A stretch of 63,608 nucleotides of DNA, the filler included, from Diploschistes diacapsis (taxonomy: Eukaryota), in the NCBI GenBank assembly GCA_023645945.1. It is 11 parts of 11 records of this genome, joined end to end, with 100 filler letters (N's around TTAATTAATTAA, not from the genome) between each part and the next. Parts side by side here need not be neighbours in the genome. Positions count along the whole stretch, not along the records: positions 29,081 to 34,766 come from JALAIB010001496.1; 10 more parts are not named here. One strand, 5' to 3'. The notes below the pieces were generated by a model, which was given only the letters and a program-made list of their open reading frames with translations, was not told the origin of the DNA and did no database searches. Shown piece after piece: positions 10,810 through 58,127 of this stretch (position 1 is the stretch's first letter; every line of letters starts with the position of its first letter). The translations under genes and the position numbers were made by a program.

Positions 10810-10813
10810 TATA

Positions 10814-17029: not shown

Positions 17030-17051
17030 GGTGTGTGTGTGTGTGTGTGTG
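17030..17051 (+). repeat. (GT)n microsatellite
   Basis: gtgtgtgtgtgtgtgtgtgtg. Confidence 0.9.
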
Positions 17052-21000: not shown

Positions 21001-21636
21001 GGAAATGAAGAATGCATCCAATCTCTTTTAAGTGTCAAAGACCTTGACGTTAATGCTCAAGACGAGAACGGTCTTACGGCTTTGCATGTCGCCATGATTG
21101 GAGGCAAACAGTTAGCTTTGGATTTGTGCGAAATTAACAAGCAAGAGAGAAACCCCTACCACGTCCGTCATGCGTTTGAAAACGCACGTGATCGGCAGCT
21201 CAGACAACATGTTGCTGCGAAGTCATTAATATCCTGTGGGTCTATTAAGATAAATGTGGCAGACAATGCAGGCCGAACGCCGCTCGACTACGCGGTTGCG
21301 GCTCACAAATTCTCGAATGAGCTGCGTTTGCTGATAGAAGCGGCTGCCCTTGAGTTCGCAGGACAGGATATATCTCGAAAAGACTACAAAGAGGGGCATG
21401 GGTCTATTCGTCGCACCTTGGAGGAGCAAGCTGCTCTCTCCTACAAGACCCCTGTACAGTGGTACATGACACTGAATGGGAGATTCGCTTCCTACCATCG
21501 GGTTGCTTACTACATGACGTTGACATTAGATGAAAGCATACCAATTATAGAGGAAGCAGGAGGAAGAACGGGTTCACCTTTTGAGTTGGAGATTAGATCT
21601 GATTTGGTGAGCTTGATGTTAATTATGAGACGGTAA
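18084..21636 (+). CDS. Fungal NLR-like protein: helical N-terminal domain, NACHT, ankyrin repeats; intron 19787-19829
   Basis: Walker A LWCPGLAGAGKT, Walker B VFVVVDAMDE, CVTSR, winged-helix FAHETV, ankyrin motifs (GESALMIA, GLTALHVA, GRTPLDYA). A 43-nt GT..GCTAAT..TAG intron joins the two ORFs in frame (DKI|FKLASLQLD). Confidence 0.9.
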
Positions 21637-23286
21637 CTTCGAATCTATTGATTTACGCAATTTTTGACCAACCCTGAAGGTTAGTATATATCATAAGGGC
21701 GGTGGAACTGCGTCCTTGGCGACTTGCCGAATGCTCCATATGTCACAAAGGCTTTGAAATGCTATCCCAATCCGGAAACTATGGGCCCAGATATCATCAT
21801 ATTACCGACAAATCGATGGATCGTCTTCCCGTTAATTTGCATTTGGGCTGAGATCCAAGCTTCAGAAGCGTTCTCCCTCGATTGGAGAATCGAAGCTACC
21901 GGCCCTTTCACGAGTGGAGCTCCCCATCACCCTCCAAGAGCAGAAATAGGGTACTCACAGCGTTTGCTTTGGACATCCACACAGAAGATCATTCATGGTA
22001 CCTCTTCTCACAGCGATCTTTCCCCCCGCCCGCCCCTCATCAACAACACAGACTGTCTCCACCAGCTATCAGCCCTTCCTCTACCTCAGCACCCGATCGC
22101 CCTCCCACCTTGATCCCACAGGAAGCAGCAGCACGATACTCCATATCCCACTATAGCCACAATAATCACAACCATGACCATATCTCTTCGGAGCCGGCTT
22201 CAATCTCTAAGACCTCATCACCAAGCCAAAACCACTACAACAACTCAAGAGCCATCTCCATCAACAAGTTATTAGAACCATCCCTGCAAGCACCACAGGT
22301 CGGAGGAAGAGAGTGAAGCCAAGTCGACAGTAGGACGCCCGCACAGGCATCGACGTTTCATTATGGGGTCCTAATAGCACCCCGTCGGTTAGGCTAAATT
22401 GCGTCCGGTCTGTGGTTGGACTTCGCCCTGTTCCCCCGGGAATGAGCTGTTTTGCAATGGTTACGAGAAGGGAGGTGTTTCCCGGCCAAGGTGGATCTGG
22501 ATCGCTTTTGAATCAAATATTGGGGGGGACGCAAGGAGTTTCGGCTTGTTGGTGACGCTAGCTACCGGCGAAGGTTTGAGATTGTGGACGATTTAGCTTG
22601 CACACGAGAAAGTTCGGGAATTTGGTGCCGGAGGTGCTCTCGGCTCAGGGGCTTGAAGGCGGGGAGGGGGGAGGCCTGCGGCCGTTGTACTGCCACGCTA
22701 TCGACAGGCTCAGGAAACTCAACAAGTGGGACTACGAGACAAGATAAAGCCTCTTCCGGGCCCCCCCTGACATCCGCGAGTGCGGGCAGAGACTGACAAG
22801 CGAAGACTTGTTAAGCGGGGATTTATGGATCGACGTTTTGCCGTAGGAAGGATATGGAGCTCGAGTAAAAGGAAGCGATGAGTTTCTACCATGCTATTTA
22901 GATGTCATAGCCTCCCACATATCAACCCGAAACTGGCTTTGTATCCACTCCAACCGTTCCTCTCCGATGCACAGTGGCTATATTATACTATCCGCAGACG
23001 GAAAACCCCCCCTCCAAGCATCGCACACCAAGCGAAGAGACGCACAAAAGATGCCGTCAATGTGTGGCCCTTACTCCAGCAGCAAGCCTCCGCCAAACTG
23101 GCAAGAGATTGGAAAAAAGCCTACCCTCCCTGCTTGCTGCCTTACCTCTGCCATCTCTCATACTGCGCCTTTATTCCCCAATGCCCNNNNNNNNNNNNNN
23201 NNNNNNNNNNNNNNNNNNNNNNNNNNNNNNTTAATTAATTAANNNNNNNNNNNNNNNNNNNNNNNNNNNNNNNNNNNNNNNNNNNN

Positions 23287-24377
23287 CCATGATAGAACCC
23301 AAACCTGCCCCCCTCCCGCAACAGCCCCACCACATACTCCGTAAACAACTCCTTCAAGTCCGCATAGTGCTCGGCAAACGTATCGTAGTACACAGCGTCC
23401 AGCTCGACCGCGCCCTGGGTGAGCAGCCGCGGCAGCACCTCCTGCCAGCGGCCCTCGTGCACCACCACCCCGGGCCTCTCGTACCAGCCCTCGGCGCGCA
23501 TCCGCGCCAGCACGTCCGCGTGCGCCTCCACGATGTGGTGGCGCGCGGGCCGGTGCGACTGGAGCGCCGCGTCGACGATGCCCATGCCGTGCCCGATGTT
23601 CATGACGGCGAGGCCCGGCGCGGGAAGGAGCAGCGCCGCGTGCCGGGCCATGATCTCCGTCTCCCACGACATCATCACGGCGTTGGAGGACGAGTCGAGG
23701 AGCTGCGTCGCGCCGTAGCGCAGCGTCGACCGCAGGAACGCCGCGTTCGAGCTCCAGTGGTCGATGTAGTCGCTCGCCGGCTCCGAGCGCGCTGCCGGTG
23801 CCGCCGCCCCGGCGCCCTCGTTCGTCTCGGGCGCGCGCTTGGGGCCTGCGTCGGCCGAGACGGAATCCTTCGGCGGCGCTGCTGCTGCTCCGTCGTCGCC
23901 GCTTCCGTCGTGTTCATCGCTACCGCCGCCGCCGTCGGCGTCCTCGTCGGTGTCGGCGTCGGCGTCGAGCTCGTCGAGCTTGCTGAGCAGCAGCTCCGCC
24001 CGAACCCCCGCGTCCACGATGGCCCGGTAGACCCTCCTGTAGCCGAGGCGCCAGGCGATGCAGCCCGGGGTCTCGCCGTTCCCGTCCAGATCGTTCCAGA
24101 TCGCGCCGTTCTCGAACAGGAGCTGCACGATTTCAAGGACGGGCCTTTCGTCGTCTTCGCTTCTATCGCCGGGTTTGGCTCCGCTGCTGGCGATGGTGGT
24201 GGCGGGGCCATCTTCGCTTCCCTGCACGGCAGCATGTAGAGGCGTGAACCCCGTGGCGGCGTCCTGGACGTTCGCGGATGCTTTGCGCAGGAGGTTGCGG
24301 GTCGCTGCCACGTCGCGTCTTCTAGCAGCCGAGAGCAGGTTTTGGGCTAGTAGCTTCTCTTCCGCTTCGGCGTCCAT
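23287..24377 (-). CDS. RMT2: Protein arginine N-methyltransferase 2 (ankyrin + SAM methyltransferase), 3' truncated by contig end
   Basis: LFENGAIWNDLD..ETPGCIA, VDAGVRAELLL, NAVMMSWET, NIGHGMGIVD, YYDTFAEHY. Confidence 0.92.
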
Positions 24378-24542
24378 TGTCGGGATGGGATATGGGATAG
24401 GGGGGGATGGGTAGGTGAGGTTTTGTGGGTAGGGGCGGCTTAGGGCAACTTTTGCGGCGGGTCTAGTTAAAAATCTGATCCTTCAACTGCTAATATTGAA
24501 AAGGATTATATCTCAAAGTTATAGCAAAATTGAGACATTAAT

Positions 24543-24628
24543 GCCTGGATGGCTAAGTTGGTTATAGCGTCAGTCTCATACATATATGATTTATCTGAAG
24601 GTCGAGAGTTCGAGCCTCTCTCCGGGCA
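24543..24628 (+). tRNA. tRNA-Met(CAT), elongator type, 12-nt intron at 24581-24592
   Basis: Acceptor stem GCCTGGA/TCCGGGC, D arm GCTA..TAGC, anticodon arm TCAGT-CTCATA[intron]A-TCTGA, T arm GAGAG-TTCGAGC-CTCTC; T7 Pol III terminator at 24634-24640. Confidence 0.95.
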
Positions 24629-24935
24629 GTTGCTTTTTTTATGGTAATTTCCTAATCTATGTAGAAAACTAGGGTCTGGATAAGCTATAACTTACTCCGA
24701 AGCTAATTAATGTGTTGGGAATAGTCTGATACACAACATGAAGGTTGGAAAATCATCTACGGTCAGCTTGGCCGGCTGTAACCTGTCTAGGGAATGGTTT
24801 TATTTGTAGAAATTTTGAACGACTTGATACCATGCCTCTATAGCCTCCAACCCTCTGCTGGGCCTCTGAAGCTCGCGCAGTCGCCACCCTAGTACTATGG
24901 ACTAAGCTACAGCTACGGCCAAATCTGCTTCGGTC

Positions 24936-25691
24936 ATGCCTGCACTGAATAGACCTAACAGGAAACGTCCTCGTAAGGCCTACAGAGCCCAGAAATGTTT
25001 GCTGGGAAAGCATCTTGAGGAGGATTTGAGGGAAGGCGTGCTGTATGTCGGCGGGCTCTGCTCCTGAGCACACTGCAGGCCAGTACTTACTGCGGCCAGC
25101 TACAACGAGAACAGGACATCGTCTCCGCTGCTGAGGCTTCCCTTCGAGGTACGCTCAATGATCTACAAATACCTACTTGGTGGCAAATGTATCCTCGTCA
25201 AACACAAAACTCCTCGGTGGGGGAATTACCAGAAACCTAGCCTCCAGAAACCGGAACGCAGGGCCCTAAAAGGATTCCACTGCACGGTCTACGATGAGCA
25301 CGAAAATCCATTCATGGAGTCTACCGCGGCAAATACTAGTTCATTTCCGGGTCTGCACATACCGGTGGGAGAAGGTGGGTTCACCCTCCTGAGCCCTGTC
25401 TGCCGCCAGCTGTACGAAGAGACGGCCACGCTGCCTTTCGAATGGAATGTCTTTTCCTTCGAGCATCAATCCGTATTTGAGAGGTACATCATGCGCGAGA
25501 AAAGGCTGCCACTTTTCCAGAGACGAGCCCTCAGAACGCTGTTAATATATAATTGGCGGCCTACCGAAGCTGTGGTGAAATATCTTGGCGGCTTGAGCAA
25601 GGTGATCGCGTGTCACTATGAAGGTATGGAGGAATATGATATCAAGAACCCTCGCTGGAAACAATCTCCTACAGTGAAAAAATTCGTCTAG
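24936..25691 (+). CDS. Hypothetical protein with F-box-like motif; predicted intron about 25043-25099
   Basis: SPLLRLPFEVRSMIYKYLLGG motif, typical of fungal F-box-like hypothetical proteins; a GTATGT...CAG intron links an upstream ATG exon in frame. Confidence 0.6.
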
Positions 25692-26469
25692 GGATTGAGG
25701 CAATCCGTCGACCTTTGGATTTCTCTCGTTGGAGTGAAGTTTATACTCATGGATCAGCTACAGGTTCTCGCGGGAGGTTAAAGCCTTGCTGCCTGTCTGC
25801 CTCTACGCAATGGCGTCTTTGCGAACGTAATGGTTCGCGCGTCCATGGTAAGAAGCATTGAAGGAGCGTATAAAGCCTCTCAGATTCTGGATATAGCGGC
25901 CAAAGATGTGTGTAGTGGCAACTGTTTCTGCGCCCATGCACAGCTAATCATAGAGACGAGCCTGTTCAGTTCTAATTCGCGAGAAGGGCCAAGTAGGCCT
26001 GGCACCGTGATTGAACACTAAGGGCATCGAGATTGGATCTAATTTTCATTAAACTCTAGAGTCTCGCACAACATCTTGTGGACGAGGACTGACGAACAGG
26101 CAATGCGGACTCTTCAATTCCGCTATGTTCTATTTCGCTCCAATCTTCTCCAATCAAGCATCCTACAGGAAGATGGGACTACACTGGCCATCCAGAGCTG
26201 GAATATATCCTCTTCCCCCTTTGACAGCTTCATTGCCCAATGTCGGAGTCAGATCTGGGTATTGAACGCGGTCAAGGCAGCCAGCCTCCTTTCCACATTC
26301 GGACGGCCCAGCGCAACGTCGCGTCGCTGCTGCTTTGCTCATGGCTGGCCCTTATTGTCCAGTCAGTCTTTCGGACAAGACAGGTCAGATTACCATTGTT
26401 CGTTGGGCACCTTTCGGAGAAAATCTACTCAAAACTCTGCTATCTATCGCCCCATGACCAGTTAACTCC

Positions 26470-26985
26470 ATTTCTCATATTCTTCACTCCCTCCAACACT
26501 CTGCCTCCACCACCTTCTCTCCCTTCTCTACATTCCCCATTACCCCCTCCTCCCCGCTTCTTACCTTTTCCCTTCCCCTGAATCCATCGGGCCATGCTAT
26601 CTAACATTGTCCACTCGCTCCTCTCCTTCGCCCGCTTCGCAAATCTTCATACGGATCTTCCCCCCCTCGCCACCGCCGCATAGTAGTCCGCGCCCAGCGC
26701 CGGCTGCGAGCGCATCATGCCCGGGCCTGAGTCCGTGAAGCCGAGCATATCGCTTTGGTTGAAATAGCTCAGGTTACTGGAGCCCTATGTGCGGTCAGCG
26801 AGGCGGGTGGCTGCCTTTCCGGTGGAGGGGGATTTAACGAGAGTGGAAGTTGGGGAGGAGGCGGCGGGAAAGGGGAGAGCTTGGGGCTAGTTCGTCCCGT
26901 AGGGGTTGCTGAAGTCGGGGGCGTTGGAGGGAGTGGCAACCGGGAAGGTTGTGGTAGAGGGCCGGTCTTTGGGTTTGGATGACAT
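26470..26985 (-). pseudogene. Disrupted small hypothetical gene
   Basis: ATG at 26985; protein-like text (SSNLSYFNQSDMLGFTDSGPGMMRSQPALGADYYAAVARG) broken by an in-frame TAG at 26887-26889 and a frameshift in a G7 run. The second TAG follows a GCTGAC branch site and is probably a splice acceptor. Confidence 0.35.
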
Positions 26986-29578
26986 GGTGATTGATTGGTT
27001 ACTGTGGTTTTTGGGTTGCGCGGTGATGCCGAGGCGCTGCTGCAGATATATATGATGGTTCCAGATGCGGGTTTCTGAGGCGGTTGAGCACCAGGGCCCT
27101 AAGCTGAGAGGCGTTCTGTGACAAAGGTAGTGTAAGCTGAAACAGGGCCTGTTTTTCTCTAGAGATTCCCTTCCACTAGGGGTGTCTACAATGTCCGCTC
27201 TTCCACCAGATCGGGTCACACGGTCTCTATACTACTCTCGCAAAATAGCGAAATTCATCTTCATCACGTTACTATCCGACCTCATTTACCTGATGATACC
27301 GCTCAAGGAATGCGGCACAGAAAATGCCACGAGCGGAGCGAACCGAGGAGAGATAGATGTTCGAGACGACGAGAACACAGTTCAGCTTCTTGCAAGAAAG
27401 AAGCTCTTTTTATTCGGTATGCAGGCGGTCAGCGCTGTTGCTTACTTACGTAATTACCCTTGAACGAGCTCCCTCGATGTGATTGTATCTGCTCCAGCTC
27501 CAGATTCAAGATGGCTGAGAGGAGGGAATAACTCTTCAACCCTTCCTTCCCCAGCGGAATCGACACGGCGTTTGTGGGGACCTGAAGGGCTTCAACAACT
27601 TTCATATCCGGCTTCCCTATGGCTCCTACTCCATACAAAAAAGCAGCATAGAGATGCGAGTAAGTAGTAAGTTCAGGCTCGAGTGCGCCGCGTCTACGCT
27701 TCGAAACGCTGCACACCCATCATCTTTTACTCCAGACTCCCCCCCGCTTCAAGGTCCGAGAAATTCGCATGTCATAATCTCACCTCTTGCTCTGCTGACA
27801 CATCACATCGCCATGCTTGATTGTCCCGACAACCTCCTTAAGAACGTCGGGCAAAATCTCCGCCGCATCTCCTTGAAGGAGCCAGTTCCCCCTTCCCGCA
27901 ACTTTGTCACCGGATTATCCCGGCCCTCCTCGCTAGGCGGATCGGTATTTTAAACACGGCAACCCTCGGCCCGTGAACCCTAGCGGCACGTATATAGATA
28001 GGCAGCCGGCGGGTACACGACAGCCGTCGTGCGCACCACGAGCATCAAGCCCGGCCTTGGGCACCTCGTCCAGCCACGCGTAGATCCGCTCTCTCTCGCG
28101 CGCCCTCCCTGATGGGCCCCCCCGGACCACACGACAGCCGGCCACAGCATAACCCTCGCGCCGCGGACACCGAGAGGATCTGCGACTTTTGCCACCTCTG
28201 CCCTGGGCCCAACATCTAGCACGAAGCCTGGCTGGCCCCCATCGTCAGCGACAACAACAAGTCCCGAACTCGCACCTCTTCCCGCCGCTGCCCACTTCAT
28301 CGCCGTGCAGCGTTCCGTGCACTGCGATCGATCTGCCAACCGCATGCCCCGCGCGGCTCCGACGGGCCGTCTGTGTTCTTGCGTGATGGCCAGGAAGCCC
28401 AGCCTGCGCCTCGCCAGTTCCGCCGGCGCAGAGTGCGCCCCGGTTCGCCCTCGCGCCAGAAGCCGCCCTTGCCGCGGAAGGTGGGGGGATGCCGGAGGCG
28501 GCGGAGAGGCCGGCGTCGAGGAGGGCGAGGATGCGGGTGCGAGGAAGTGCAGGTGCCGGGCGAAGGGAGGCGCAGGCGTCGACGTCGACGTCGATGTTCA
28601 GGTGCGGGGAGGAGGGAACTCGGCCGGTTTCGAATCTGCAGCGTTGCTGCTTTTCGTAGTAGTATTTGGTGGTGTTTTTGCTGTGCTTGGCGCGCGTGTG
28701 TGAACGTTGTTGTTCGAGGGGGACTTTGAGCTGCGGATGGAATTTTTGCAAATGCCGAGAGATTGTCTGCAGTATATATAACACAATAGTCATGAATGAG
28801 TCACGGGGCCGCGCCCCTTCTAGTTTGCATTTGCGCCGCCGTCGGCGGATTCTTCCTATACCGAGCCATCCATCATCCTCTCTCCCCACGATGGATAGCT
28901 CTTTCAAAAGGAGGGGGGGGGCACGGCCTCATGACGTGAATGAAAACATCCTCTCTGCAGGAGACGCCACGCATTAAATCNNNNNNNNNNNNNNNNNNNN
29001 NNNNNNNNNNNNNNNNNNNNNNNNTTAATTAATTAANNNNNNNNNNNNNNNNNNNNNNNNNNNNNNNNNNNNNNNNNNNNGGAAAGGGGCTGGGGAGGGA
29101 ATGAGGATGATAGTGGAGGAGGGAGGGCGGAAGGAAAGGAAGCAAGGGACAAAAGGGAGGAGAGGGTATGACAATGGAGATAAAAAAGGGAGACGAAGAA
29201 GTCGTGGAGATAAAATAAGTGTGGAGTTGGTTTTGTTGCATGGCGGATGGAATGAATGGGTTGAAGGCACTACTTGTATTAAAATATTTCTTGTTATAGT
29301 GCAGACGGGGAATGGTAATAAGATCGCAGGGATTATACAGAGATGGAAAAAATGATGTCGGAAATGAGAGCGGCCGAGGCCGAAGCGTCGAGTCCCAGCA
29401 CGAGAGAGACAGAGAGATAGATTACCATCCTCATAACTGATCAACGTTTGCACAAGCCTCCCCCAAAGCTGTCTCCTGGCCGGTGTATCCACAGCCCAAA
29501 CCAGAAACACATCTCTTCCGCATCACTCACTGCCTCGCCCTCCCTCTTCCTTCCGCCCACAACAGCCTCCTCCACGGC

Positions 29579-31252
29579 TCAGTTCCCAAACCACTCCCCA
29601 CCAAGCCACCTGTTGAAAAAGTCCACGCTGGCCTCGGGCTGGTTGTACGGCACCATGTGTCCCGCCGCGTGAATCTCCACGAACGTCAGATTCCCCGAGC
29701 TCTTCACCCCACCAACCTTCTTCCCCTCGAGCTTCAGCTCGCCCAGCCTCTCCTTGTTGTACGCCTCCTTTCCGCTCCACTTCAGTTCCTCCGTCCAGGC
29801 CCTGTTGCCCAGATAATTGCAGATGAAATCGGCGTCCCCGGCGTAGATCAGCACGGGAATCTCCTCCAGGATGTCCGGAATGAGCAGGTGGTAGGGCTGC
29901 ATCCAGTCGCCCTGGAACAAGAAGTTGCGGTTGATGTCGAAGTTGCAGCCCTCGTAGCTGTCGACCTCCGCGCCGAGGCCCTCCAGCACGTGGTCCTGGT
30001 TCAGCCAGGAGCTGATCCAGTCAAGCTCCTCGTAGCAGAGGTTGCCGCCCTTGCACTTCTCGCGCACGTCGTAGGGGTTCATGCCCGTGCGCTGGTAGGG
30101 GCCCAGGATGGCGTTGTTGCAGTAGATGCTTGCTGGAACGCACGTCCATGCGCTTTGGCTGTTGTAGCACGACTCGATCAGGCTCTGGCACCTGGGCAGC
30201 GCGTTGTCCATGCTCTGGCACGTCTGCTCGTCCAGCACGGCGGGCCAGGCGCCCTCGCCGCAGGCCATGGGGCGGTAGTACTCGTACTGGATGTAAGGGT
30301 CCGTTAGGCCATTGCCAATCAGGACCGACTGGAGATTGATGTTGCGCTTCTTGTGTGATAGGATCTCCGACGTGAAAACGGGTATGTAGTGGCCCGCGTA
30401 GCTCTCGCCGGCAATGTGAAAGTCCTGCTTCGCGTACTCGGGAAACTGCTTGAAGAACAGCGTCAGCAGGGCGTAAATGTCCTTGCCCGCGGCAACGGTG
30501 TTGGACACGCTGTTGCTGCTATAGCTGAAGCCGACGTTGACGGGCTGATCGAGGAAGATGACGCTGGCGTTGGAGTTCCACGAGGCCGGGTTGTGCTTGA
30601 CTTTGCCGTCCCGAGTGATGGCCGCGGGACCGAGCTCCATGAAGAGACCCGTTAGCGAGGAGCAGCCGGGTCCGCCATTCAACCAGAGCACGACGGGGTC
30701 AGTTTCAGGGTTGTTGCGTGACTCGAAGAACCAGTAGAAAAGATGCTTGTCCTCTTCTTCGTCATCAAGGTACCCAGCATACTGGGTAACGTTCGGGTCG
30801 ACGCCGAGCTCGTTGGGCTGTACACGCTTGCCGCGCAGGTTGTACTGGGCCAGCCGGCCTTCGATCTCGCGCTCTTTCTCGCCTTGGGCGTTTTCAACCC
30901 AGAGAGATTGCAGGTCTTCGCCTTTGGCGATATAGTCCCAGTGACTGTCGGGCTTGCGGTGCGCCTTCTTCGGTTGCGGGAAACGGAGCTTGGAGACCTC
31001 CTCGGGGAACTCTCGCGAGACCTGCTCCCATGTTGCCTTTGCCTCGTCGGAGAGCAGGTGCCACGACTTCCTTAAATCGTTGACGGCGTGTGAAGTGCCA
31101 CCGGCAATCTTGTGCACAGACTCGGACGCCTCATGAGCGAGTTTGTCGCTGAACTTCGAAGCATCAGAGGCACCATGCAGTGGGACTTGCGAAGGCCCAG
31201 CTGCTGCTGCCAGGGTCGCTGCTCCGACAAGGAGCGATGCCGCGACCTTCAT
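29579..31252 (-). CDS. cpyA: Vacuolar carboxypeptidase Y (S10 serine carboxypeptidase), intronless
   Basis: Signal peptide [12 protein letters not shown], propeptide, [16 protein letters not shown] (catalytic Ser), AGHMVP (catalytic His). Confidence 0.96.
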
Positions 31253-31823
31253 AATAGCGTACGACAAGGACAATGATAATCCAATAGATACGGAGCAAAT
31301 AAGAGAAGGAAAGAGGGTGAAGGAGAGTTGAAAAGGATGGGGATGGGATGCATTACTACCCACTTGTTCGAGTCATCTGCCGGGGCTGCCAGTCCCGAAA
31401 AGGTCAGATGCTACGCACTAGGCCCCGTTTTAGACTAGGGGTTCACCTTGGAGCTCCTCGAACTTTGAAGCCTACTTTATGCCATGAACAGATTCAATAC
31501 TTCTTCTTATTAAGACTGTAGGGCGGGGCACATGTTGAGAGATGCAAAAGCTGTGGTCAAAGTGGTCAAAATCCAACTTGAGTAAAGCAAGAAGTCAATC
31601 ATGTTTGATAGCTGTCCATACTCTAATCCAGTCCCTGTGAACGGCCAATAACATGCCTCGTTGCACATCGCATACAAATTCGTATCGTCTGTTTCGTGTC
31701 CTCGTTCAATTCTAGCATTCGTCTATTCGTTTTGATGGGATCAAGTACCCCCTGCAGCTCTCACCGCTAACCCAATGGCCGCACACAAGCCATTGAGAGA
31801 TCGCTCTGGGAGGACATGGCCGT

Positions 31824-33999
31824 TCAGCAGATAGGGTGCGACTTCCCAGCCTTGCCCTGCAGCGAGTGCTTCTCATTTTTGTACTTGTGGTGAGCGTGCC
31901 TGCCGCTGTTCTTGCTAGTATTCTTAGTGTTCTTCTTGACGTGCTCCATATGCGCATCAATGTGCTGTTCGTCCATGTTTTGCAACGTCTTGACTGCCAT
32001 GCCAATATCAGTCACGAGCGAGTCGCAGCGTGAACGAGAGAAGTCCTCTCGGACAACAACTGTGCGCAGAGGGTCAGCAACTTTGCTCCATTCACCGGGC
32101 CGGACACGGTGGCTTATCTCATGAGCTTAAGCTTCTCGGAGTTTGGCGCCATGGTGTAGGCTGGCACAACCCAACCGCGCTCACGAAGCTGGTGAGCAAT
32201 AGCAAACTCGTCAAAGTGGTGCTTGTGCTTTGGGTCGAGACGGAAGGCAACAAGAGGGAGGCCATTTCCACCCCCTTGGCTGTGACCGGGTTAACAAGCT
32301 TACAGATAAGCTGGATGTGGAAACAAACCTCATGATAACGAAACCGAGGGTCTGGAGGCAGGAAGCCAGATAATCAGCCGTGCGCGTGAGGTTCTTCATG
32401 ATGGACCGGTAACCAGTCTGGCCGAGACGGATGAACTGGTCTGAGAAGGGTCAATCGAGAGCTCCTCAAGCAAGGTGGCTAAACATACAGTATTGGCCGA
32501 GGACCTGCGAAGCGCCCTTGGAAAAGTTCAGAGTAAAGCTCGCTTGATCGGCTCCGAGGTAGTTGATGTTGAAGACCAGCTCCTGAGGCAGATACTCCGG
32601 AGAACGCCAAACAGCCCAACCGACACCAGGATAGACCTTCTCGTGTCAGTTCAGCCCATCTAACGTGGGACGGGATGCAATCCTACCAAGCCATACTTGT
32701 GCCCGGAAACGTTGATGGAAACGACCTTCTCGAGGCGGAAGTCCCACTCCAGCTCGGGCTTGACAAAGGGCGCGACGAATCCACCAGATGCGGCATCGAC
32801 GTGGATCGGGCAGTCAATGCCTTTTTCCACCAGGAGGTCGTTGACCTTCTTCGTATCTTCGTACTCGCCAGTGTAGGTCGTGCCCCTAGGAATGAGGTTA
32901 GCGGTGCTCTTTGGTCTGGCTGATCTACATACAAGATCGTGCAAATGCCAATGGTGTTTTCGTCAACGAGAGAGACAGCCTCTTCTGGGTCGATCACATA
33001 ACGGTCAGTCGTGCAGTAGCAGTACTTCTCCTCAACATCAAAGTAACGGGCCGCCTTTCTGCATGGCTCTTAGCTAGTGTCTACCGTCAGTGTTCTTTTT
33101 CCTTACTCCCAGCAGACCTGGACGGCCGAGTTCATGACAATGTTTGGCTTCGAATGGTCCTTGCCCTCTGCTTTGCGTTTGTTTTGCCACCTCTTCTTTA
33201 AGGCGAGCGTGGCGAGCATGATGGCCTGCCGTCACTCAGCGATATCCCTCGTGAGGAGCTAGGTGGTCGATACGAACCTCTGAACTGCCAACCGTGCTAG
33301 TGCCCATTGCGTCTTCGGCTTCGTCGTGGGTTGGAGCACTGTTATCTGATTAGCACAGCCGATGCTTTGCATACTCCACCACATACTGGAAGAGGCGGGC
33401 GATCATGTTTACGCATTTGGCCTGAATGTCGGCTGTCTGAGGGTACTCCTCATAATCGATGAAGTTCTTGGCCTTGGCAAGCATCAGCATCGCCTCCCTA
33501 AATTCCTTTGGCAGTGCAATACAATACCAATGACTCAGTCATGAGCTTCTCGGCCTCTTCCTCCATGCTACAATGCGTAAGCACCGCTGTAGGTTGGTCT
33601 CGAACTTCCCTGCATACTATGTGGTAACAAATCTGGCTCTTGATCAGCTTTGCAGGACTCACACGGCGGGGCGTTTGGACTGACGAGGCCAAGTTGAGCA
33701 CTGGGTTGCCGTCCAAGCTCAGGTGGTCCTTGATCAAGCGATACGCAACATCCCTGGGCCTGGTGGTACAGAGCGAGTCAGCCATTGAAGCTTCCAGACT
33801 GGGGACAAGCTTGGGCCGGGTCTCACATGTCGCCCTCGGGCATGTGGGTGCTAGGCAGCCCCTCAGCAGCGAATCTGCTGCCGTATACAGTTGCGCTGAG
33901 CTCGTGTTCTTCGGGTTGTTCGAGCTTGACATTTTCGAGTTCCTTGATCGGGGGCTTCTGGGCTTCCGAGTCCTTCAAAACTGTGGCAAGGTGCACCAT
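31824..33999 (-). CDS. GAD1: Glutamate decarboxylase (PLP-dependent), 13 exons
   Basis: Spliced MVHLATV...[18 protein letters not shown]...[10 protein letters not shown]...[10 protein letters not shown]...SGHKYG (PLP lysine)...[10 protein letters not shown]...KSHPIC; 11 GT-AG introns plus one AT-AC intron. Confidence 0.96.
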
Positions 34000-34684: not shown

Positions 34685-35338
34685 TGTTATTAGAACGCCC
34701 CTACAGCAATAGGTGCTACATTACCGGGGGCTGAGCCTGATCCGGAAGGATTACGTGTAGCTGGGCNNNNNNNNNNNNNNNNNNNNNNNNNNNNNNNNNN
34801 NNNNNNNNNNTTAATTAATTAANNNNNNNNNNNNNNNNNNNNNNNNNNNNNNNNNNNNNNNNNNNNAAAGAGAGGGGGGGGGGGCTGTGTGGGATGGCTT
34901 CGGAAATTGGCGCCCGTTGAAGCTTGTAAGTTGCATTCGGGATGGGAAGGGGCAAAAATTGTTTGTGAATGTTGATGGATTTCCATGCGTCCTTGCACCT
35001 CTAAGCCCAGTCTGAGTGACTCTTTTGCCCCCGTTAATAGTACAAATCAAATCTTCATCCCTAAATATCATAAGCAGGATGGTCTGTCTAGGGGCATGCC
35101 CCAGTACCGGGTGGGAATAAAGACAGATCTGATGAATGGACTCGGAGCATTTCCGAAGGTGCTTTCCAAGTGTATATACATGGTTGCACGGGTGATATGG
35201 CGGCACGGTTCTGTTTACAGTAAAGCAAAGAAAAAAGGGAGGTCGGGTGGAATTGCACAGCTGCTTTTGCTAGCGATGTAAATCCGCAAGGGGGGAAGGA
35301 AGAAAAACAAGCGATAGGGGCAACGCAATCACGTTCGC

Positions 35339-38300
35339 TCAAATCACCTCCTCCACCCATCCCCTCAAGTCCACTCCTCTCGGGCCAAAAACCTCCCTGT
35401 CTAGATCAAGCTCCAGCAATCTTCGTGCCACCTCTTGCTGTATTTTCTATTAGCTTGCCCTGCTCAGCTCGTCACGTCCACGGCCAACACAAAGCCTCCT
35501 ACTCACCGCACGCACGCTGTCCTCCACCTCCTGGTCATCCTCCGTCGACGCACAAGCGCTCACAAGGTTCACGCCCTGAGCTTCCAGCAACAACAGCTCT
35601 TCCGCTCGCTCGATGACGCTCTGGTCGATGCCGTTGAGCGCGGCGCAGCTGCGGTGTCCTTGTCGGTAAGTGGTAACAAAGGGCATACGCAAGGGGTCGA
35701 CGGGTGAGCTTACACCGTCCCGAAGCTGGAGGTGCTGCGGCCGGGCCGCAAACTATGCGGAATGTAAGCTGGGAGAAACGGGCAAAAATGGTAGTCGTAC
35801 TTGTAGAGATACGTGACTTGGTCCTCGACGTTCCGCGCCTTCGTGTCCATCCGGATCTCCATATGCGCAAAGGCCAGGTTCGGGTGCTGGCCGACATATC
35901 CGCCCTCGAAGATCTCGTGGAAGTGGGTTGCTGCTAGGACCTTCGGTGTTTCGTCGGCCAGATCGAGGAGGTGAAGAATGATACCGCAGAGAAGACCGGC
36001 GCCGTCTGGGCTTGTTAGCTGCGTCCAGAATGCGCTAGAAGCGAAGCAACGGACCGGCGGCATTCGTTCCCTTCCCAAACTCATCAATGACGACGAGACT
36101 TCGCCTCGTTAAAGAACTCAACGAGGTCGATATCTGCTGTAAGTCTATCATGAATGCACTCTGGACTTTCGACACTGTCTCTCGCGTAGCAATTCGGGTT
36201 AGGATTTGATCGGTTAGTCCGATGACAGCGTGCTCGGCGGGCACAAAGGAACCTACGTGGGCCATATAGGTGATGATAGCTACTTGCTTGAGATAGACAC
36301 TTTTGCCAGAGTAGTTTGGACCGGTGAGTATGAGCATACTTGGGCCGTCCAGGTCAAGTTCATATGTTGCGGCTTGAGCGAGTTGTTGGCTCCTTCTTGC
36401 TTCTGCCGGCTGATCTTCTGTTGGAACTCCGGGACCACCGACAAGGAAGGTATCGTTAGTGATGCAAGAGGATACGACGTTTTTTTGGAGTATATGCCTG
36501 TCGAAAAGTGAGCATGATTTGATTATCTCATTAACGATCCTACCATCCCCCTTTGATCTGGACGGTGTTCTCCACCGTCATCCAAGGTCTGGTGAGCTTG
36601 TACATCCGGGCACCTTGGGCTAAGGCGGTCAAGCTTGATCTATGATCAGTCATCGTGGGATTGGGTAGTAGCTTTGGAGACGAGCTAACCAATCAAGTTC
36701 GGCACAGACTTCAGATATTTCGCATAACATGGTGGCATACTCCAGGACCCTTTGAGCCAGGTCATGGACTATCTCAATCTCTTTATCTCCACGATGTCAG
36801 CTGTTATGTCTCTGAGCCAAGACGCTCAACTAACCACAAACGTCAGCGTAGATATCTCCAACGGTACCATCAAGCTCCTCCATCCGAAAATCCTTGAAAT
36901 AAACACGGTCAGCTGTATGGAATACCTCTCGCCATTCTTCTCCTTCTACTCCTCGATAATCCACTGTCTCTGTGATTGGGTTGATAGGCATGGATATGAG
37001 AAACCCAATCTGAGGGAAGAAGATCACATTCAGATTCAAAGCGTAGTTTTTGGGAATCCCGTGGCCAATTTCTCGGGATAAGTGATTGAGCATATCCTCA
37101 AGACCGTTGTATTGCCTCTTCATTCCGTCTAAAGTCTCATCGACGCCAGGCAGTACGACGGTGCGATGCGTTTCTTGAGATTCAGTAAAGTCAACCTAGC
37201 TGGATTAGTTGAAGTAACGCCCAAGTTTCGTTGGGCGTACAATGTCGGTGATCATCTTGCCAACAGTCCCGAGATGATGGACTTCGAACTTTTCAAGCAC
37301 CTGTAGCACTCCATCAGTATCTAAAGGGATCAAGGGCAAAATGCTCCGACCTTGTTACAAATATCTAAATGTTGCCCATGCTGAAGTTCCGCTATAGCCT
37401 GACGGATATTGATAGTATAGAATGCGAACTGATAGGATCAACTGTCGGTACTTGAAATAAAGCCATTCTAAGCCTTACAGATCGTAGAGTGAACCACACG
37501 CCACTAGCAACGCCTCTGTTCTGACTACTGCCTCCGCTGATCCCCTTGCGTAGATTAGTCACGACATGCTTCATATTTTTGATGGACTTGAGGCTTTTGA
37601 CGATGTCGCCCAGCAATGCCTCGTTAGACGCCTGCAAAAGAATGCTGACTGTATCGTGGCGTTGCTTCAAGGTATCCAGATCCAGACTAGGCCGTAGGAA
37701 ATACTGACGAAGACAAAATTTTCCCTGTGGCGTTCTTGCAAGATGATGGAAAAGGCCATAAACAGAAAGACCTTCTTTCGAACCAGACGAGGTATTCGTG
37801 GGACCTTGATTGTGGGAATGAGGATGGTAGTCTTCCTGCAGAATCTGGAGCGAGATCAATGTATCTGCATTTAGGAACCTATTTTGATGATTAGAACCAC
37901 AGAATACCATCTAGAATTAGTCGCCGTACATGATGCCGTCCAGATTGAACATCTCGAAGGAAGTAATTCTAAAGGTATTAACCGCGTCGGGATCCCCAGG
38001 TAAGTGAAGGACTGCTCGTCGGCGTTGAATATAACTCAAGAGCGCTCCAGCACAGCTTACAGACAAACGGCTTTCCAAATCAATAATTGAAGATAGCTGA
38101 AGAAGGATACCCTGTCTATGACTAAAGCCGGGGTCCAAACCATATCGGTAGCTTTCATGAGGATCTTCGTCCCCGGGAACGACGAAGCTCGTGCGATTTT
38201 CTTGGGAGTTCTCAGTCTGCAGATCTACGAGTTTGCGAAGGCCACCCTCGTAACTGAATTCATTGGAAGGGCGGATGTCGAGGATATAAGGCAGGCGAAA

Positions 38301-38882
38301 TTGACCTTAATCGACGGCGTTAGACGAAGCTTCATTTTGGATATTTGCCACCTACTGTCAATATTTCCACCGTTTCTATTGTTTCGCTCTGGATCCAAGT
38401 GCTCATCTACGCTTTCATCGATCCTTGAGGAGATAAGCACAACAGTGGGATCAGCATAAGCCTTCACTAACGCAGGGTAAGTTTTTGTAAACTTGGAAAA
38501 GGAACTACGCACGAGTGTCGATTATGTCGAGTCCACCAAATCTGACATCACTCAGCATGTAAAGCTTTTCTACCCTGGCAACGTAATAAGAGCAGCCGAT
38601 AGTATCACGGTCCCGCATGTCTATAGCCATAATCACTTCGCTCAGAGAATCCTCCTCTTCAAGACCTTTGGGTGGCTCTTGTGACTCTGGTTGAATTTCG
38701 CCATGGGTAACTTCTGATGACTGGGTAACCTGCGATCTGGAATCGGAGGAATCGTTGAAATGGCGGCTTCGTTTGGAAGATCCATCACGGCTTGAAGGGG
38801 CTTGAAGTCTAACTCGTTTACCCGAATGGCTTGGCTTTGTGAAAGGCGTTGATTGAAAAGGTCGTGGCGTCCCGCTAGCCAT
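35339..38882 (-). CDS. MSH5: Meiotic MutS homolog MSH5, 14 exons
   Basis: [21 protein letters not shown], Walker [35 protein letters not shown]; 13 GT-AG introns give a continuous frame. Confidence 0.93.
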
Positions 38883-39134
38883 GTTTATAGGAGTGCTGAA
38901 TGAACAAAACCATTGGAATACGAAGAGTAAAATATAGAGAAACTTTGAAGGGTATAGGATCCTATAAAGATCTGGTGAAATTCACACGTTTGGAACGTTC
39001 AATGTCAATTTGAAGTTCATTAAGCGTGGTGACAAAGCCGGGACTTCTGCTAGCCGCCACCGTCTCAGCCTTGCTTTTCTCGAGCAGCCCACGCTATAAA
39101 TAAAGAAATTGGTATCTTACACAGTAGAAGCCAT

Positions 39135-40544
39135 TCATTCAAACTGAGACAGGTCCAACGGCACACTACTACCTCTTCCAGCCCTGTACTTCTTTGGTAC
39201 ACCCATAAAATCGCGTGGCTTAGGGAGCTGACTATCGTCCTGAAACCTCCACCGATTATCTTGCACCGTGAAGGAAGCGCTGATGGTGCGTCTTGATCTT
39301 GGCGATGCAGTATTTGATCTTGCGGGACCATTTGATAGAGTGTACGAGCTGGGATCGAGCCTCGATCCAATGGGATGCTGTGAGCTCGTCCGCGAAGGCA
39401 GTGGCGACGTCACAGATGGAGGGGGAGGCGGCGGAGCTGAGGTTGGTGACGTCGGTGATGGTACTCTTCCATTAGAGAAAGCGTTAAGGGCTGCTTGCTT
39501 CGCTAAAGTTCCAGATCCGATACCGTTGGGTTGTGGCGGAGCTGAGGGAGGTGGCGGCGGTGGAGTTGACCTTGAGGGAGGAGATCGAAGAGGTGCAGAG
39601 TTGTCTAATGGTGGTGCGGAAGGGGGTGGAGGTGGAGGAGGGGGAGGGTGACTGAACGAAGCACCAGAGGGGGGTAACGGCGGCGCGGTAGGAGGAGAAG
39701 CTGGAGGTGGAGGGGCAGAGACAGGTGGTGGAGGCGCTGAAGGAACAGGAGGAGCAAGACCAGAAGGTTTCCTCAGCGTGACAGGCGGAATGGAGGGTTT
39801 GGAGCCCGGTAACGGCGGAGGAGCTTTTGCCGCACCGACATCTGCTGACGACTTTGAAAGTACAGGGAAAGGACGCGAAGCTGGTTTGGGAGGGGCCTTG
39901 GCTGCACCCGCTTCGCTTATAGGACGTGATGGTGTTGGCCGTAGCTTTGCAACACCGGCTATTGGAGGTTTCGGTGCGGTACCCACAGGCGGTCTTGAAG
40001 GAGCAAGCCTCGAGCTGTCAGATTCGGGGACATATGGCGAACCCTTGTCCGCTCCTGTATCCACACCTCCACCGCGTTTCTTTAACTTTGGCATTCCGCC
40101 AGCGAAGAGTCCACCTAGTTGTGGAGCCTCAGAAGTGACAGAGCTTGCCCCGGCTCCTGCACCACTGTCACTCCTATCTCTGGTTGCGCCTGGCACAGAT
40201 CCTCCGGTAGATTTTAACATTCCAGGCACTGGAGGTGCACCTGCCGCAGCAGCACCTCCTCCCCCCTTCGATTTGTCCAGCAAAGGGCCCGAGCGGTCAT
40301 TCGTAACTGCTTTTTTGAGACCCTTCCCTTTTTGAATATCTTGGAGTAATGCACCCTGCAGAATCGAATTAGTGTCCTTCTTAAAAGCGACTCTGACCCT
40401 GCTAGAGTAATATCCGGCCTTTCCCAACTGCAGCAGGTGGTCTTACAGGAAGGTTGCCTGCACTTGGAGCTCCGGGCGCTGGAGGTGGTGGTGGCGGTGG
40501 AGGAGCTCCAACGCCACTTGGTGGAGGCGGCGGCGGTGGCGGAG
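39135..40544 (-). CDS. VRP1: Verprolin/WIP homolog (WH2 domain, proline-rich), 5' truncated by contig end
   Basis: Poly-Pro N-terminus, WH2 GALLQDIQKGKGLKKAVTNDRS, LGGLFAGGMPKLKK, C-terminal RWRFQDDSQLPKPRDF..KYRAGRGSSVPLDL. Confidence 0.92.
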
Positions 40545-41275
40545 NNNNNNNNNNNNNNNNNNNNNNNNNNNNNNNNNNNNNNNNNNNNTTAATTAATTAA
40601 NNNNNNNNNNNNNNNNNNNNNNNNNNNNNNNNNNNNNNNNNNNNGGGGAGGGAGGGGGCTTACGAGGATGTGCATGCCGTGGAGGAACGGGGGACTTTTC
40701 CCGCTGGATGTATTGCTGGGAAAAAGAATTTAGGTAAATGTGGGTGGGGGACGTTGCGTCGCTAAGTTGATTCTTTTTGCATCTATGTTCAGGGAAGTGA
40801 TAGTTGCTTTAGAGACCTTGTAGTGCTCCCATTCTTGAATTCCAGTTTGTCTCAATGTCTTGTGAGATGCACCAACGTATTGTAGACAAGACACTTGTGC
40901 TGTTTTAAAAAAAAATTATATATACGAGAACCGAACCTAGAAGGCTACTCTGTATTTATTATTTCGTGATCCGATATTCTATTCTATAGCGCTCAAACAT
41001 GGTCATCTCCCGCTGTGGATTAAACTAGGTGGAGATTTTAGAGCAACCTTCCACTTTACAGCTGGTGAGATCTCCTAAATTAAGAAGCCATTACAACGCA
41101 TGTATGTATTTTATTGGTACAAAGAATTGAAGCCATCGTTGTTGCCACGCACATCGTCGCTTTGCTTTCCCGCAATGTTTCGTATACAGCTCATGCAGTT
41201 CTGTCGGTGATCGGCCGCCTTTACTCTTTACGTCCTGCGCACTACTCTGCAATTTCGTACCGCTTTCCATACCAC

Positions 41276-42626
41276 TCAGTTACCCTTGGTCTTGACCATC
41301 ATACCATCGCCCAAAATGCCGTTGAAATAGGCCTTGCTCTGAGCAACTGCGTCCGCAGCATTATAGCCCAAAGTCGGCACCAGGCCCGTGATGAGTAGGA
41401 ATATGGTGAGAATAACCATGCAAAAGACAACGATTTTCCTCTGTGCGGGATGCTTGACGCCATACTCGGCCCATTTCCTGCTTGCCTCGGAAAAGGCATT
41501 CTTGATGTTGTCCTTGCCGAGCTTGAAGTAGACCATGCCGGCAAGAGCCATGCCGTAGCCGAAGAACTGGAGAAGAGTGACCGGAGTGCCCCAGATGGCG
41601 ATCGAAGCGCAGACGAGCAGGATATCCTTGAGCACACCACAGAGTGTCATGACAAGAACGGACGTTCGGCCAATCTAGATGGAACGTCAGTTAATAGTAA
41701 CGATACAGTGGTAGCGTCTGAGAATATACCAAGAAGACAACGCTAACGTTCAGGCCAAAAGCAATCAGGGCATTCAGAAGAAGAGTAAAGTACCCGACGT
41801 GCGCCACAGCCTCGAGAGAAATCTTGGGCACTTCCAGAAAGAGGGAAACAAGTCCGTTCATGATGGCACAAACAGGAGCAAAGTAGTAGAATGAGACCAA
41901 GGGGTCCATCTTATACTCGGCGGACGACAGAAGCCTTCCGACCATGGTCAGACGGATGGCCTCGAACACAACACCTCCGATCTGGAAGAGGACTCCAGCC
42001 AAGACAAAGTGGATTTCACCGTAAGACGCAATCATGACGCCAAGCACAATGAACAATACGTTGCCCAGCTTCTTCATGTTTGGCGCCTCCATACCAAAAA
42101 CCCAGGAGCAGAGAAGAACGGCGGCGGGCATGGTAGCCTAGATCTACAATAAGCCGAGGGTCATCAGACTCTTGGAAAGAGTACTTGCCTTGAGCATTTG
42201 GATAAAGGACACGCTAAGGTACAAATAGGTAACATTGCCGCAAATCAGAGACAAGCTGAAGAAGAATCCGATGGGGACGATAGCTCTAAGATAGACCCTT
42301 CCGGTCATTTTGACCTTTTTACGCCCATCCAGCAGCGTTGTCGTTCGAGCCAGAATTTGTGTCATGAGAGTTCCAAAGGCCAGATGCCATGTTGTGAGGA
42401 TGATGGGGAAGGGAAATTCAAGAGTGTCTAGGATCCACTTGTTGAAGAGAATAGTCGCGGAACTCATCGCTATCCACGAGGTCACGTAGAAGGCAGGATG
42501 AAGGGCGGTCCTTGGAGGCTCGGGCTTTTCGGTCGCCGGGTTGATTGTAGGCATCTGGATGGTGGAGCCTCCATCGCTGCGTGGGATATCGCCAGAGAGG
42601 CGCTCCTTTTCCTCCATTGCAGACAT
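41276..42626 (-). CDS. glfB: Nucleotide-sugar transporter, probable UDP-galactofuranose transporter (GlfB/UgtA), 3 exons
   Basis: TPT-family motifs (ILFNKWIL, FPIILTTWH, YLSVSFIQMLK, GVLKDILLV); divergent from UDP-galactopyranose mutase as in Aspergillus; first intron is GC-AG (42138-42188). Confidence 0.88.
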
Positions 42627-43582
42627 GATATCCAGCGAGGTTTGAGACTTGTAGAACGAGCGAAGGGAGAACGGTCGTTGCCGCTCGAGACTGGCTACGC
42701 CAACCAGCTTGAGCTTCCTGCGTAGCAGTAGTGACGCACACTGGGAAGGCGTTACGGATTGAACACAGCAGATTCACAATCTTGGAGAAGTGCAATGATT
42801 GAGATATCGCAGTGGATAAAGAATAGACTGGAGGAGATGAAGCCGAGTTAGACAGAGTGTAGCTGAAAGGAAAAGGGAGGGCTCGTTATCGTGATAGTGA
42901 ATAAGTTTACGACACTTTCCCATCTCCTTTCAACCTTTTCCCTTCAGCCCTATTTTCTCCTATCGGAGTTTACCCGCCAAGCCTAACTTAAGGTCACACT
43001 CACTTGTGTTTCCGCAGACCAACATCGTCCAAGTCGCTTCATCTTTCTACCGTCCCTATGCACCTGGCCACATAAATAGCCAATGGCTATTGGTAGGTAG
43101 GTAGGCATAGGTAAGATGTTGCGCAACCAGTTGTATGCACCCAACTATTCTCTTATTGTTGTCATAGCAGGGTGATCATCATCTTATAACGCGGCATGCC
43201 GCATCGTGCAAAGCTCGGATGCAAAGGTACCACCCGCCGGATACGTTAAAATTGCCTGCGGTAGATGTGCTCCAACTCAGTAAGATTTAGGACCAGCCCA
43301 AAATTCGTACTTCATCGGAGCACTTTGGTGATGATTTACCAAGCGGATGATTGCGGCTCGCTTCTACCTAAGCGACTCGCTTAGCGGCCTCTCCGGGGCC
43401 AAATTGGTTATATTCGGAAAAGCTGGACGCTATCGATAAGTCCCAACCCAATCGGAGTAGTCACAGACGAAGCATGGACTACTAGCTGGGTTTCAGACCC
43501 GAGAAAGAACGAGCCCTGACAAGTTTGATAATCTGTAGCTCTGTGTCTGGGTTTTAAAAGGGGTTCCGCGATGAAGCGACGA

Positions 43583-43615
43583 TGGGGTCCCACTGGGGTC
43601 CCACTGGGGGTCCCC
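43583..43615 (+). repeat. Short tandem TGGGGTCCCAC repeat in the glfB-glfA intergenic region
   Basis: tggggtcccac tggggtcccac tgggggtcccc. Confidence 0.7.
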
Positions 43616-43854
43616 AACCCTCGGGCTTCAGGGACCCGTCAACTAACCGTTAGTGGAACACACATGTTGAAATCCTAATGCAGAAGAGTTGTTGCTGCTG
43701 CATCCTTTATTTTACATGTCGTCCCACTGTATCTAGACGGTTTTTCATTTACCTCGTCCATTGTTCTGCAGGGAGCAGCTCTGCAGACTTCTAAGCAATC
43801 GATATCTTGTTGTCAGGCACCCCTACCAAGTGGCTTAGTCGTCTGAATACCATA

Positions 43855-45799
<1,945 letters not shown>

Positions 45800-46418
45800 A
45801 GTGACTGGGAAAAAGAAAATGGTGTATCCGATGCCTTTTTATGTCTATTGCAGATACACAGCAAAAGGTAGATATTCATGACATATGGGACCAATTCAGG
45901 GTGGCTCGACATGTTTCCTCGGGCATAATAGACGCGCTTCGCTGCGCCGCAGCCCGCATGGCTGCTCGTCTGCTTCGACGCCTCGGCAATGTTTGTTACT
46001 TAGATGGAAGCAGCATATCGTTAGTTAGCGATGGGTAGCGCTAGAGGGTCATTTTTTGCAGATAGTAGATAGATAGAACTTTTGAGAATTCTGCTGCTGC
46101 TTTGTTTTTCTCGGCTAGTGCCTTGCATACCAGCGCGGGTTGAAACAATTGTTAAAGCGAGCTGCGCTAGAGAACGTCCCTTGCTTGCAAGTTGTAGTAC
46201 CGCAGAAGGCCGTGTTCCCGTATTTTCCTTTTCTGCGGCACTTTTTTTTCCCTCCCCTCCGAAGGTCGTGCCTGTGCAATCTAGTAACAAAGTTCGCTCC
46301 TACCTCCCTATGTTGCCCNNNNNNNNNNNNNNNNNNNNNNNNNNNNNNNNNNNNNNNNNNNNTTAATTAATTAANNNNNNNNNNNNNNNNNNNNNNNNNN
46401 NNNNNNNNNNNNNNNNNN

Positions 46419-58120: not shown

Positions 58121-58127
58121 TATATTT

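Follow-up and report, generated by a model that had tools for sequence, protein, structure and literature searches.

The window analysed here, a stretch of 63,608 nucleotides (nt) joined from 11 records of the Diploschistes diacapsis genome (GenBank assembly GCA_023645945.1), carries on its minus strand a gene for glutamate decarboxylase in which the last of twelve introns appears to begin with AT and to end with AC. We describe the gene and this intron, compare the corresponding site in related fungi and weigh the explanations that can be offered for such an intron.

The glutamate decarboxylase gene and its twelfth intron

Read on the minus strand, the sequence around the site is CTC ATG AG|ATAAGCC...GTTGCTGACCCTCTGCGCAC|A GTT GTT GTC CGA GAG GAC TTC, the segment between the bars (32117..32062) being 56 nt in length. 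The gene, the segment and the signals within it are as follows:

31824..33999, minus strand: glutamate decarboxylase coding region, 13 exons and 12 introns, 517 amino acids, stop codon included (model built by coordinates)
32118..32279, minus strand: exon 12, ending with AG, the first two bases of an Arg codon (sequence and gene model)
32062..32117, minus strand: intron 12, the putative 56-nt AT-AC intron (sequence, gene model and excision test)
32112..32117, minus strand: 5' splice site ATAAGC, preceded by GAG in the exon and agreeing at five of six positions with the U2-type AT-AC consensus ATAAGT (sequence)
32114..32116, minus strand: TAA codon read when the intron is retained (sequence and listing of open reading frames (ORFs))
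32073..32078, minus strand: branch site GCTGAC, with the branch A at 32074, 12 nt short of the intron's final base (gene model)
32062..32063, minus strand: 3' terminal AC (sequence); a Thr codon (ACN) stands before VVV in the ORFs that read through from the intron, both in the window and in two related fungi (P0124 and P0156)
32060..32061, minus strand: AG 2 nt downstream of the AC, its A closing the Arg codon and its G opening the Val codon (sequence and excision test)
31824..32061, minus strand: exon 13, the last exon, comprising A, the codons for VVVREDFS...SHPIC and the stop codon (sequence, database matches and gene model)

If the segment is retained, the frame reads AGA and then TAA at once (32116..32114), so that the product of the stop-to-stop ORF ends in KLKLMR, 78 residues short; VVVREDFS...SHPIC sits in a separate ORF. 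There is no GT (0) in the 48 nt between the codons for AYTMAP and this TAA. The AG that lies 2 nt past the AC is present because the Arg and Val codons force it, and joining it (32061..32060) to the ATAAGC donor produces a frameshift. An earlier, sequence-only reading of this stretch had made the same three points, the immediate stop, the missing GT donor and the frameshifting AG, and each is confirmed.

We then scored every in-frame, stop-free single excision around the site (n = 1826) against the expected peptide. The 56-nt AT-AC excision scores 197 and is the only one of the 1826 to give the conserved R-VVVREDFS, whereas the best GC-AG excision (168) adds five foreign residues and the best GT-AG excision scores 105. 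In sequence the AT-AC excision is identical to a TA-CA excision, the two placements being indistinguishable because an A flanks both sides. The Arg residue on which the test turns stands immediately before VVVRED in 80/80 related loci after splicing and in 147 of the 149 collected proteins with the motif, one of the two exceptions beginning at the motif itself. An ORF-joining scan of the whole window found 19 candidate AT..AC pairs, 33 GT..AG pairs and between 13 and 44 for eight decoy end-pairs, and is uninformative against these decoys.

The other introns of the gene are GT-AG in 11 cases out of 11, measure 47-67 nt and have CTRAY-like branch sites 9-18 nt from their 3' ends. Intron 12 falls inside both ranges, with its 56 nt and its branch-to-3' distance of 12 nt, and the ordinary length and standard GCTGAC branch site claimed for it earlier hold up. 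The donor consensus complementary to U1 is CAG|GTAAGT; by manual count the donor of intron 12 matches it at 6/9 positions, equal to the best of the other 11 donors (4-6). Three sequence features of a type II (that is, U2-type) AT-AC intron are found here: AT and AC termini, a donor that fits apart from position +1, and an ordinary branch site at the usual distance.

The decarboxylase gene is intact and under constraint. Exon placement was guided by tblastn with the Trapelia coarctata protein (P0008), to which the full-length model is 78% identical, and the window protein keeps 194 of the 196 columns on which all of 48 full-length orthologues agree; it breaks two, single orthologues between 0 and 4. 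Full-length similarity to fungal glutamate decarboxylases and the presence of conserved motifs, NLASFVTTYM amongst them, place the protein in the group II pyridoxal phosphate (PLP)-dependent glutamate decarboxylases, and the database matches of the last exon carry the corresponding PF00282 domain. In the last-exon search, 345 of 363 candidates had E <= 0.001, being fungal glutamate decarboxylases with top identities of 67-69%; those with names come mostly from lichen-forming Lecanoromycetes, together with other Pezizomycotina. An N-terminal-exon query gave four matches only, and the window's own protein is absent from the protein database searched with these two queries.

The same site in related fungi

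The first set of relatives came from metagenome contigs, the scanning of which yielded 80 loci from 198 confirmed stretches. In 77 of these 80 loci there is no intron at the site and the coding sequence is continuous. The other three (L068, L076 and L080) have a canonical GT-AG intron of 213-218 nt at the same codon boundary, in phase 0 between the Arg and Val codons, with the junction ATG AGR or CGA|GTAAGT...CAG|GTY. These introns have the Arg/Val boundary and the GTAAG core of the donor (ATAAG in the window) in common with intron 12 but no other similarity, differing from it in length, phase and CAG end; the three loci group with a Cladophialophora protein in a Chaetothyriales-like clade and are not the window's nearest kin.

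A second search was made for short ORFs, of the size expected in databases from a prokaryote-style gene caller where an intron cuts the frame. The best match, P0124 (88 amino acids, from an 18-kb ENA contig), starts MTRAANFPCT and runs directly into VVVREDFS, with 57 of the 78 last-exon residues identical to those of the window; P0156 (87 amino acids, from a separate ENA contig) starts MTPLLTFRCT and continues likewise with VVVREDFS. In both, the first Val is preceded by the codons TGY ACN, against CGC ACA in the window. Gln before Val is what a canonical phase-0 acceptor produces, as in L068, L076 and L080, and amongst the 49 further representatives of this search every other one with the motif has Arg before it. 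Cys-Thr before VVV leaves P0124 and P0156 with no AG acceptor directly before the Val codons, as would be expected of a conserved AC end. By the genetic code, the Ala-Asn codons of P0124 and the Leu-Thr codons of P0156 can encode the putative branch sites GCTAAC and CTAAC, 12-13 nt upstream.

The findings thus fit a 3' end that is compatible with AC and is not AG in three independent assemblies, those of the window, P0124 and P0156, whose last exons share 55-73% identity and are still open and conserved. An end of this kind in three diverged assemblies with an open last exon is hard to square with either an assembly error or an untranslated last exon. The FastTree trees draw on 78-111 residues and have weak support. 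In the last-exon tree P0124 is the partner of the window (support 0.74), and P0156 belongs to the same 13-member clade as the window (0.77), alongside intron-less members.

In two loci the last-exon match spans 285 nt rather than 228 (L001:3001-3285 and L060:1274-1558), with an ORF break that follows ERYLE or ERYQE, so that an extra intron of ~57 nt seems to be present inside the last exon.

Interpretation of the probable AT-AC intron

Type II AT-AC introns are an established but very rare class, to which the window intron would add a member. The SpliceRack survey of five species counted 24 amongst 608,562 U2-type introns and used the conservation of intron borders in orthologues to back individual cases (Sheth et al. 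2006, PMC1557818). Such introns are described as carrying a strong ATAAGT donor (PMC5029451), and a change of the first intron base from G to A is reported to be rescued by a change of the last from G to C in both yeast and human (PMC1557818). As to fungi, xylanase genes of filamentous species have been suggested to contain type II AT-AC introns (a citing sentence in PMC1557818), 69 of 14305 junctions in Trichoderma longibrachiatum RNA sequencing data are given as AT-AC (PMC4324775), and fungal annotations are said to contain few (PMC7072748). The xylanase and Trichoderma cases belong to the same class and the same fungal subphylum as the window intron, but lie in other genes. We found no description of the window intron in the literature on AT-AC introns in Pezizomycotina, filamentous fungi, Lecanoromycetes or glutamate decarboxylase.

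We think it likely, with a probability of roughly 0.78, that intron 12 is a genuine U2-type AT-AC intron and that no fewer than two related fungi retain its AC end as well. The sequence-only reading had already called it a natural U2-type AT-AC intron; the gene model, the excision test and the 3' ends of P0124 and P0156 bear out the structural part of that claim, whilst splicing itself is deduced from them. The intron would be removed at its AT and AC termini by the major spliceosome. Recognition of GAG|AUAAGC by U1, and then by U6, would be in the ordinary register, U2 would pair with the GCUGAC branch site and the branch A would attack the intron at its initial A. The non-Watson-Crick contact of the second step, usually made by the first and last G, would be made by A(+1) and C(-1), and on account of this contact the AC 12 nt past the branch point would be chosen over the AG that follows 2 nt later. 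Splicing would thereby join exon 12 (ATG AG) to exon 13 (A GTT GTT GTC), with the predicted junction ATGAG^AGTTGTTGTC, to give a full-length enzyme with R-VVVREDFS. This A(+1)-C(-1) mechanism is proposed because of the yeast and human suppressor experiments that are cited in PMC1557818 and PMC5029451.

Several known systems can be set beside this one. The animal U2-type AT-AC introns (human SCN4A/SCN5A) likewise have AT and AC termini, a strong U2-type donor (ATAAGT, against ATAAGC here) and an ordinary branch site; their borders are conserved between species, as the AC-compatible ends of P0124 and P0156 would be, but the present intron belongs to a filamentous ascomycete, is 56 nt long and has its splicing predicted from sequence. 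Parker and Siliciano (1993) reportedly rescued a G1A mutation in an engineered yeast intron by a terminal G-to-C change. That intron has the same terminal nucleotide pair, in an organism group without the minor spliceosome, and is the basis for the second-step compatibility, but it is a laboratory double mutant, whereas the window intron is natural and apparently maintained in several species. The nested AT-AC intron of Saccharomyces cerevisiae RPL30 is, like ours, endogenous to an ascomycete without U12 splicing (Gould et al. 2016, PMC5029451). As described there, however, it concerns ~1-2% of transcripts, is unlike ATAAGT and does not serve the main ORF; the window intron, by contrast, has a donor that fits ATAAGT and must be removed for the conserved protein to be made.

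A number of points weigh against a genuine and conserved AT-AC intron. The exon 12-13 junction is deduced from protein conservation, and the AT start of the P0124 and P0156 introns is an assumption, these being known from their proteins alone; should the Thr codon in either be ACA, a GT donor one base upstream combined with the downstream AG (giving M-I-VV) would be possible there. Engineered introns with A1 and C-1 are reported to be spliced less efficiently (PMC1557818), which makes some retention or mis-splicing likely. This report is also the one hint towards the throttle on entry into the GABA shunt that the sequence-only reading proposed from the competing acceptor and slow splicing, an idea that otherwise finds no support. 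Amongst the relatives with no intron at the site, the nearest (P0001, P0002, P0009 and P0125) show the intron to be dispensable.

How a type II AT-AC intron might have arisen here can be considered separately. Set against the relatives' AGR|GTAAG...CAG|GTY, the window's AGA|TAAGC...CACA|GTT is a phase-0 intron minus both terminal G's, and since the upstream exon ends in A, the loss of both G's yields an AT-AC intron shifted by one base. We regard it as unlikely, but worth stating, that the AT-AC intron is an ancient trait within its clade and was derived in this way from the phase-0 GT-AG intron of Chaetothyriales-like relatives. The G-loss origin that forms part of this proposal would amount to the intron sliding by one nucleotide, which A(+1)-C(-1) compatibility would make viable. 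For 1-nt shifts in Pezizomycotina a different route, by way of stwintrons, has been described (PMC5587772). Alternatively, the AT-AC state may stem from two substitutions in a phase-2 GT-AG intron. At this codon boundary relatives either lack an intron or carry one with GT-AG or with AC-compatible ends, and the site is a possible small test case for the origin of type II AT-AC introns.

As for the rival explanations, intron 12 might be kept or only rarely removed, leaving a truncated protein that ends after KLKLMR without the last 78 residues, or the gene might be a very young null allele turning into a pseudogene. Retention does meet TAA at once, and ends other than GT-AG are normally splicing defects, but the last exon is an open frame of 78 codons running to the conserved Cys and stop, with the close agreement to P0124 noted above. 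Two diverged relatives with a non-AG end (P0124 and P0156) also keep this exon open, which would be unexpected had it gone untranslated since their common ancestor; there is no relaxed constraint in the remainder of the gene, and neutral decay would hardly produce two complementary changes, one at each end of a single intron, in a gene that is without blemish elsewhere. We judge this explanation improbable.

The chance seems slim, too, that the intron is removed at some other non-canonical junction. The example we considered is a GA-AG intron of 59 nt (32118..32060), which predicts the junction ATGA^TTGTTGTC and a product, KLM-I-VVREDFS, that is one residue shorter. It uses the AG placed 14 nt after the branch A, and an ACA Thr codon in P0124 and P0156 would make these sequences, too, consistent with an AG lying 2 nt into the Val codon. 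The product, however, loses the Arg found before VVVRED throughout the loci and in all but two of the proteins; a GA donor is likewise non-canonical and puts U1 pairing with AUAAGC out of register; and no terminal-nucleotide rule is known to favour GA-AG over A1-C(-1).

An assembly or sequencing error would mean that the true intron is GT-AG, hidden by two substitutions or by the loss of two G's from AGA|GTAAGC...CACAG|GTT. The addition of one G at each end does give a canonical phase-0 intron at exactly the position of that in L068, L076 and L080, and one of the two affected sites is a GG run. Yet two errors would be needed precisely at both ends of one intron, in a gene whose 13 exons and 11 other introns show no frame error, and the P0124 and P0156 assemblies also have no AG directly before the Val codons. 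Elsewhere in the window ~15 kb of long, Pfam-supported ORFs (including NOC3/CBF, SRP72, helicase, NACHT, ankyrin and carboxypeptidase) are without frame breaks, which counts against an assembly error at intron 12. The earlier reading had thought a sequencing error unlikely, and with this further evidence we regard it as very improbable.

An intron dependent on U12 and the minor spliceosome is scarcely credible here. Besides the AT-AC termini, the branch-to-3' distance of 12 nt would suit such an intron, being typical of the U12 type and within its 10-15 nt range. The U12 consensus consists of a rigid donor, ATATCCTT, and the branch site TCCTTAAC; the window has ATAAGCCA at the donor, as the sequence-only reading had observed, there is no ATATCC donor within intron 12, and the branch region (GTTGCTGAC) holds nothing resembling the U12 motif. 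What the window intron has in common with U12-type AT-AC introns is thus the terminal dinucleotides only, whilst donor and branch site differ and the host phylum is reported to lack the machinery. An Rfam search of the window matched a transfer RNA (tRNA) gene only. The same U12 donor is quoted in PMC5029451. The closest named relatives of the window gene are Lecanoromycetes, within the Pezizomycotina; U12 introns and the small nuclear RNAs that their host needs (U11, U12, U4atac and U6atac) are reported missing from Ascomycota, Pezizomycotina included (PMC2846911), and in a further study neither Ascomycota nor Basidiomycota yielded a convincing minor intron (PMC10639083).

Two other structures can be set aside: a nested intron (stwintron), for which 56 nt leaves no internal space, and an introner-like element, of which there are no extra copies in the window or the 80 loci, chance matches of <= 12 nt apart.

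If complementary DNA (cDNA) confirms the type II AT-AC reading, intron 12 would be nature's clean equivalent of the classic suppressor experiment with G1A and G(-1)C. Its position in a conserved gene of metabolism looks essential, the phylum has no minor spliceosome, and the intron is apparently maintained across species. In practical terms, gene predictors limited to GT-AG and GC-AG introns will cut the decarboxylase short at KLKLMR or mis-model its end, and will overlook its 15-nt micro-exon near the N-terminus as well.

The remaining introns, a micro-exon and the rest of the window

The other introns of the decarboxylase gene, and the micro-exon between two of them, are listed here; placement is from the gene model, with the two-intron search in addition where indicated:

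33760..33826, minus strand: intron 1, GTGAGA...CAG, 67 nt
33633..33684, minus strand: intron 2, GTCAGT...CAG, 52 nt (also two-intron search)
33618..33632, minus strand: exon 3, a 15-nt micro-exon with codons for FVTT and part of S and Y (also two-intron search)
33568..33617, minus strand: intron 3, GTATGC...TAG, 50 nt (also two-intron search)
33473..33527, minus strand: intron 4, GTATTG...AAG, 55 nt
33339..33386, minus strand: intron 5, GTATGT...CAG, 48 nt
33226..33277, minus strand: intron 6, GTTCGT...CAG, 52 nt
33059..33106, minus strand: intron 7, GTAAGG...CAG, 48 nt
32886..32932, minus strand: intron 8, GTATGT...TAG, 47 nt
32637..32686, minus strand: intron 9, GTAGGA...AAG, 50 nt
32441..32488, minus strand: intron 10, GTATGT...CAG, 48 nt
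32280..32328, minus strand: intron 11, GTTTGT...CAG, 49 nt

Near the N-terminus the gene shows a second apparent defect. No single canonical in-frame intron near 33690..33570 restored NLASFVTTYM, the outcome being an 8-residue insertion or a frameshift, and a pseudogene or an indel error was suspected. This suspicion was dropped once the 15-nt micro-exon (33618..33632) had been found, flanked by canonical introns of 52 and 50 nt: the model that contains it is the best of 639 two-intron models and restores NLASFVTTYMEEE exactly. The gene is therefore not decaying on this account. In Escherichia coli GadB the NLASFVTTYM motif, as placed by alignment, lines the substrate pocket (PMC9814759). A micro-exon of this size is likely to be missed by automatic annotation.

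Intron positions around this motif vary amongst the related loci. Of those showing NLASFVTTYM, 12 have one intron, which follows the Met codon immediately and lies 4 nt downstream of window intron 3, and 11 have none, whilst L068, L047 and L041 have an intron within the Asn codon of LN|LAS (AA|GTA...AG|C), a distinct position ~10 nt upstream of window intron 2. With the window protein as tblastn query, 17 related loci show 0-4 breaks against the 12 introns of the window gene, an approximate comparison in that in-frame or very short introns could escape it. Read-through residues indicate that intron 11 is common to the close relatives P0001 and P0009, and intron 10 to P0002.

Genes with Pfam matches lie on either side of the decarboxylase (336..31372 and 34814..61688). 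They encode NOC3/CBF, NIP7, SRP72, an XPD-type helicase, carboxypeptidase Y, a MutS homologue and a WH2 protein, together with a TPT transporter, ribose-5-phosphate isomerase, a ThiF-family protein, a fungal rhodopsin-domain protein, a TAF9-like TFIID-31kDa protein and RPC34. The carboxypeptidase Y gene is a single ORF of 597 amino acids adjoining the decarboxylase. Two long adjoining ORFs on the plus strand (18075..21633), with NACHT/NPHP3_N and ankyrin repeats, look like a fungal NLR-type gene. The tRNA gene, the only Rfam match in the window (RF00005, 54.3 bits), lies on the plus strand at 24543..24628. Finally, ten pairs of 44-N runs recur every ~5.8 kb between 5735 and 57945 (880 N in total); they resemble masking rather than assembly gaps, and none falls in the decarboxylase gene.

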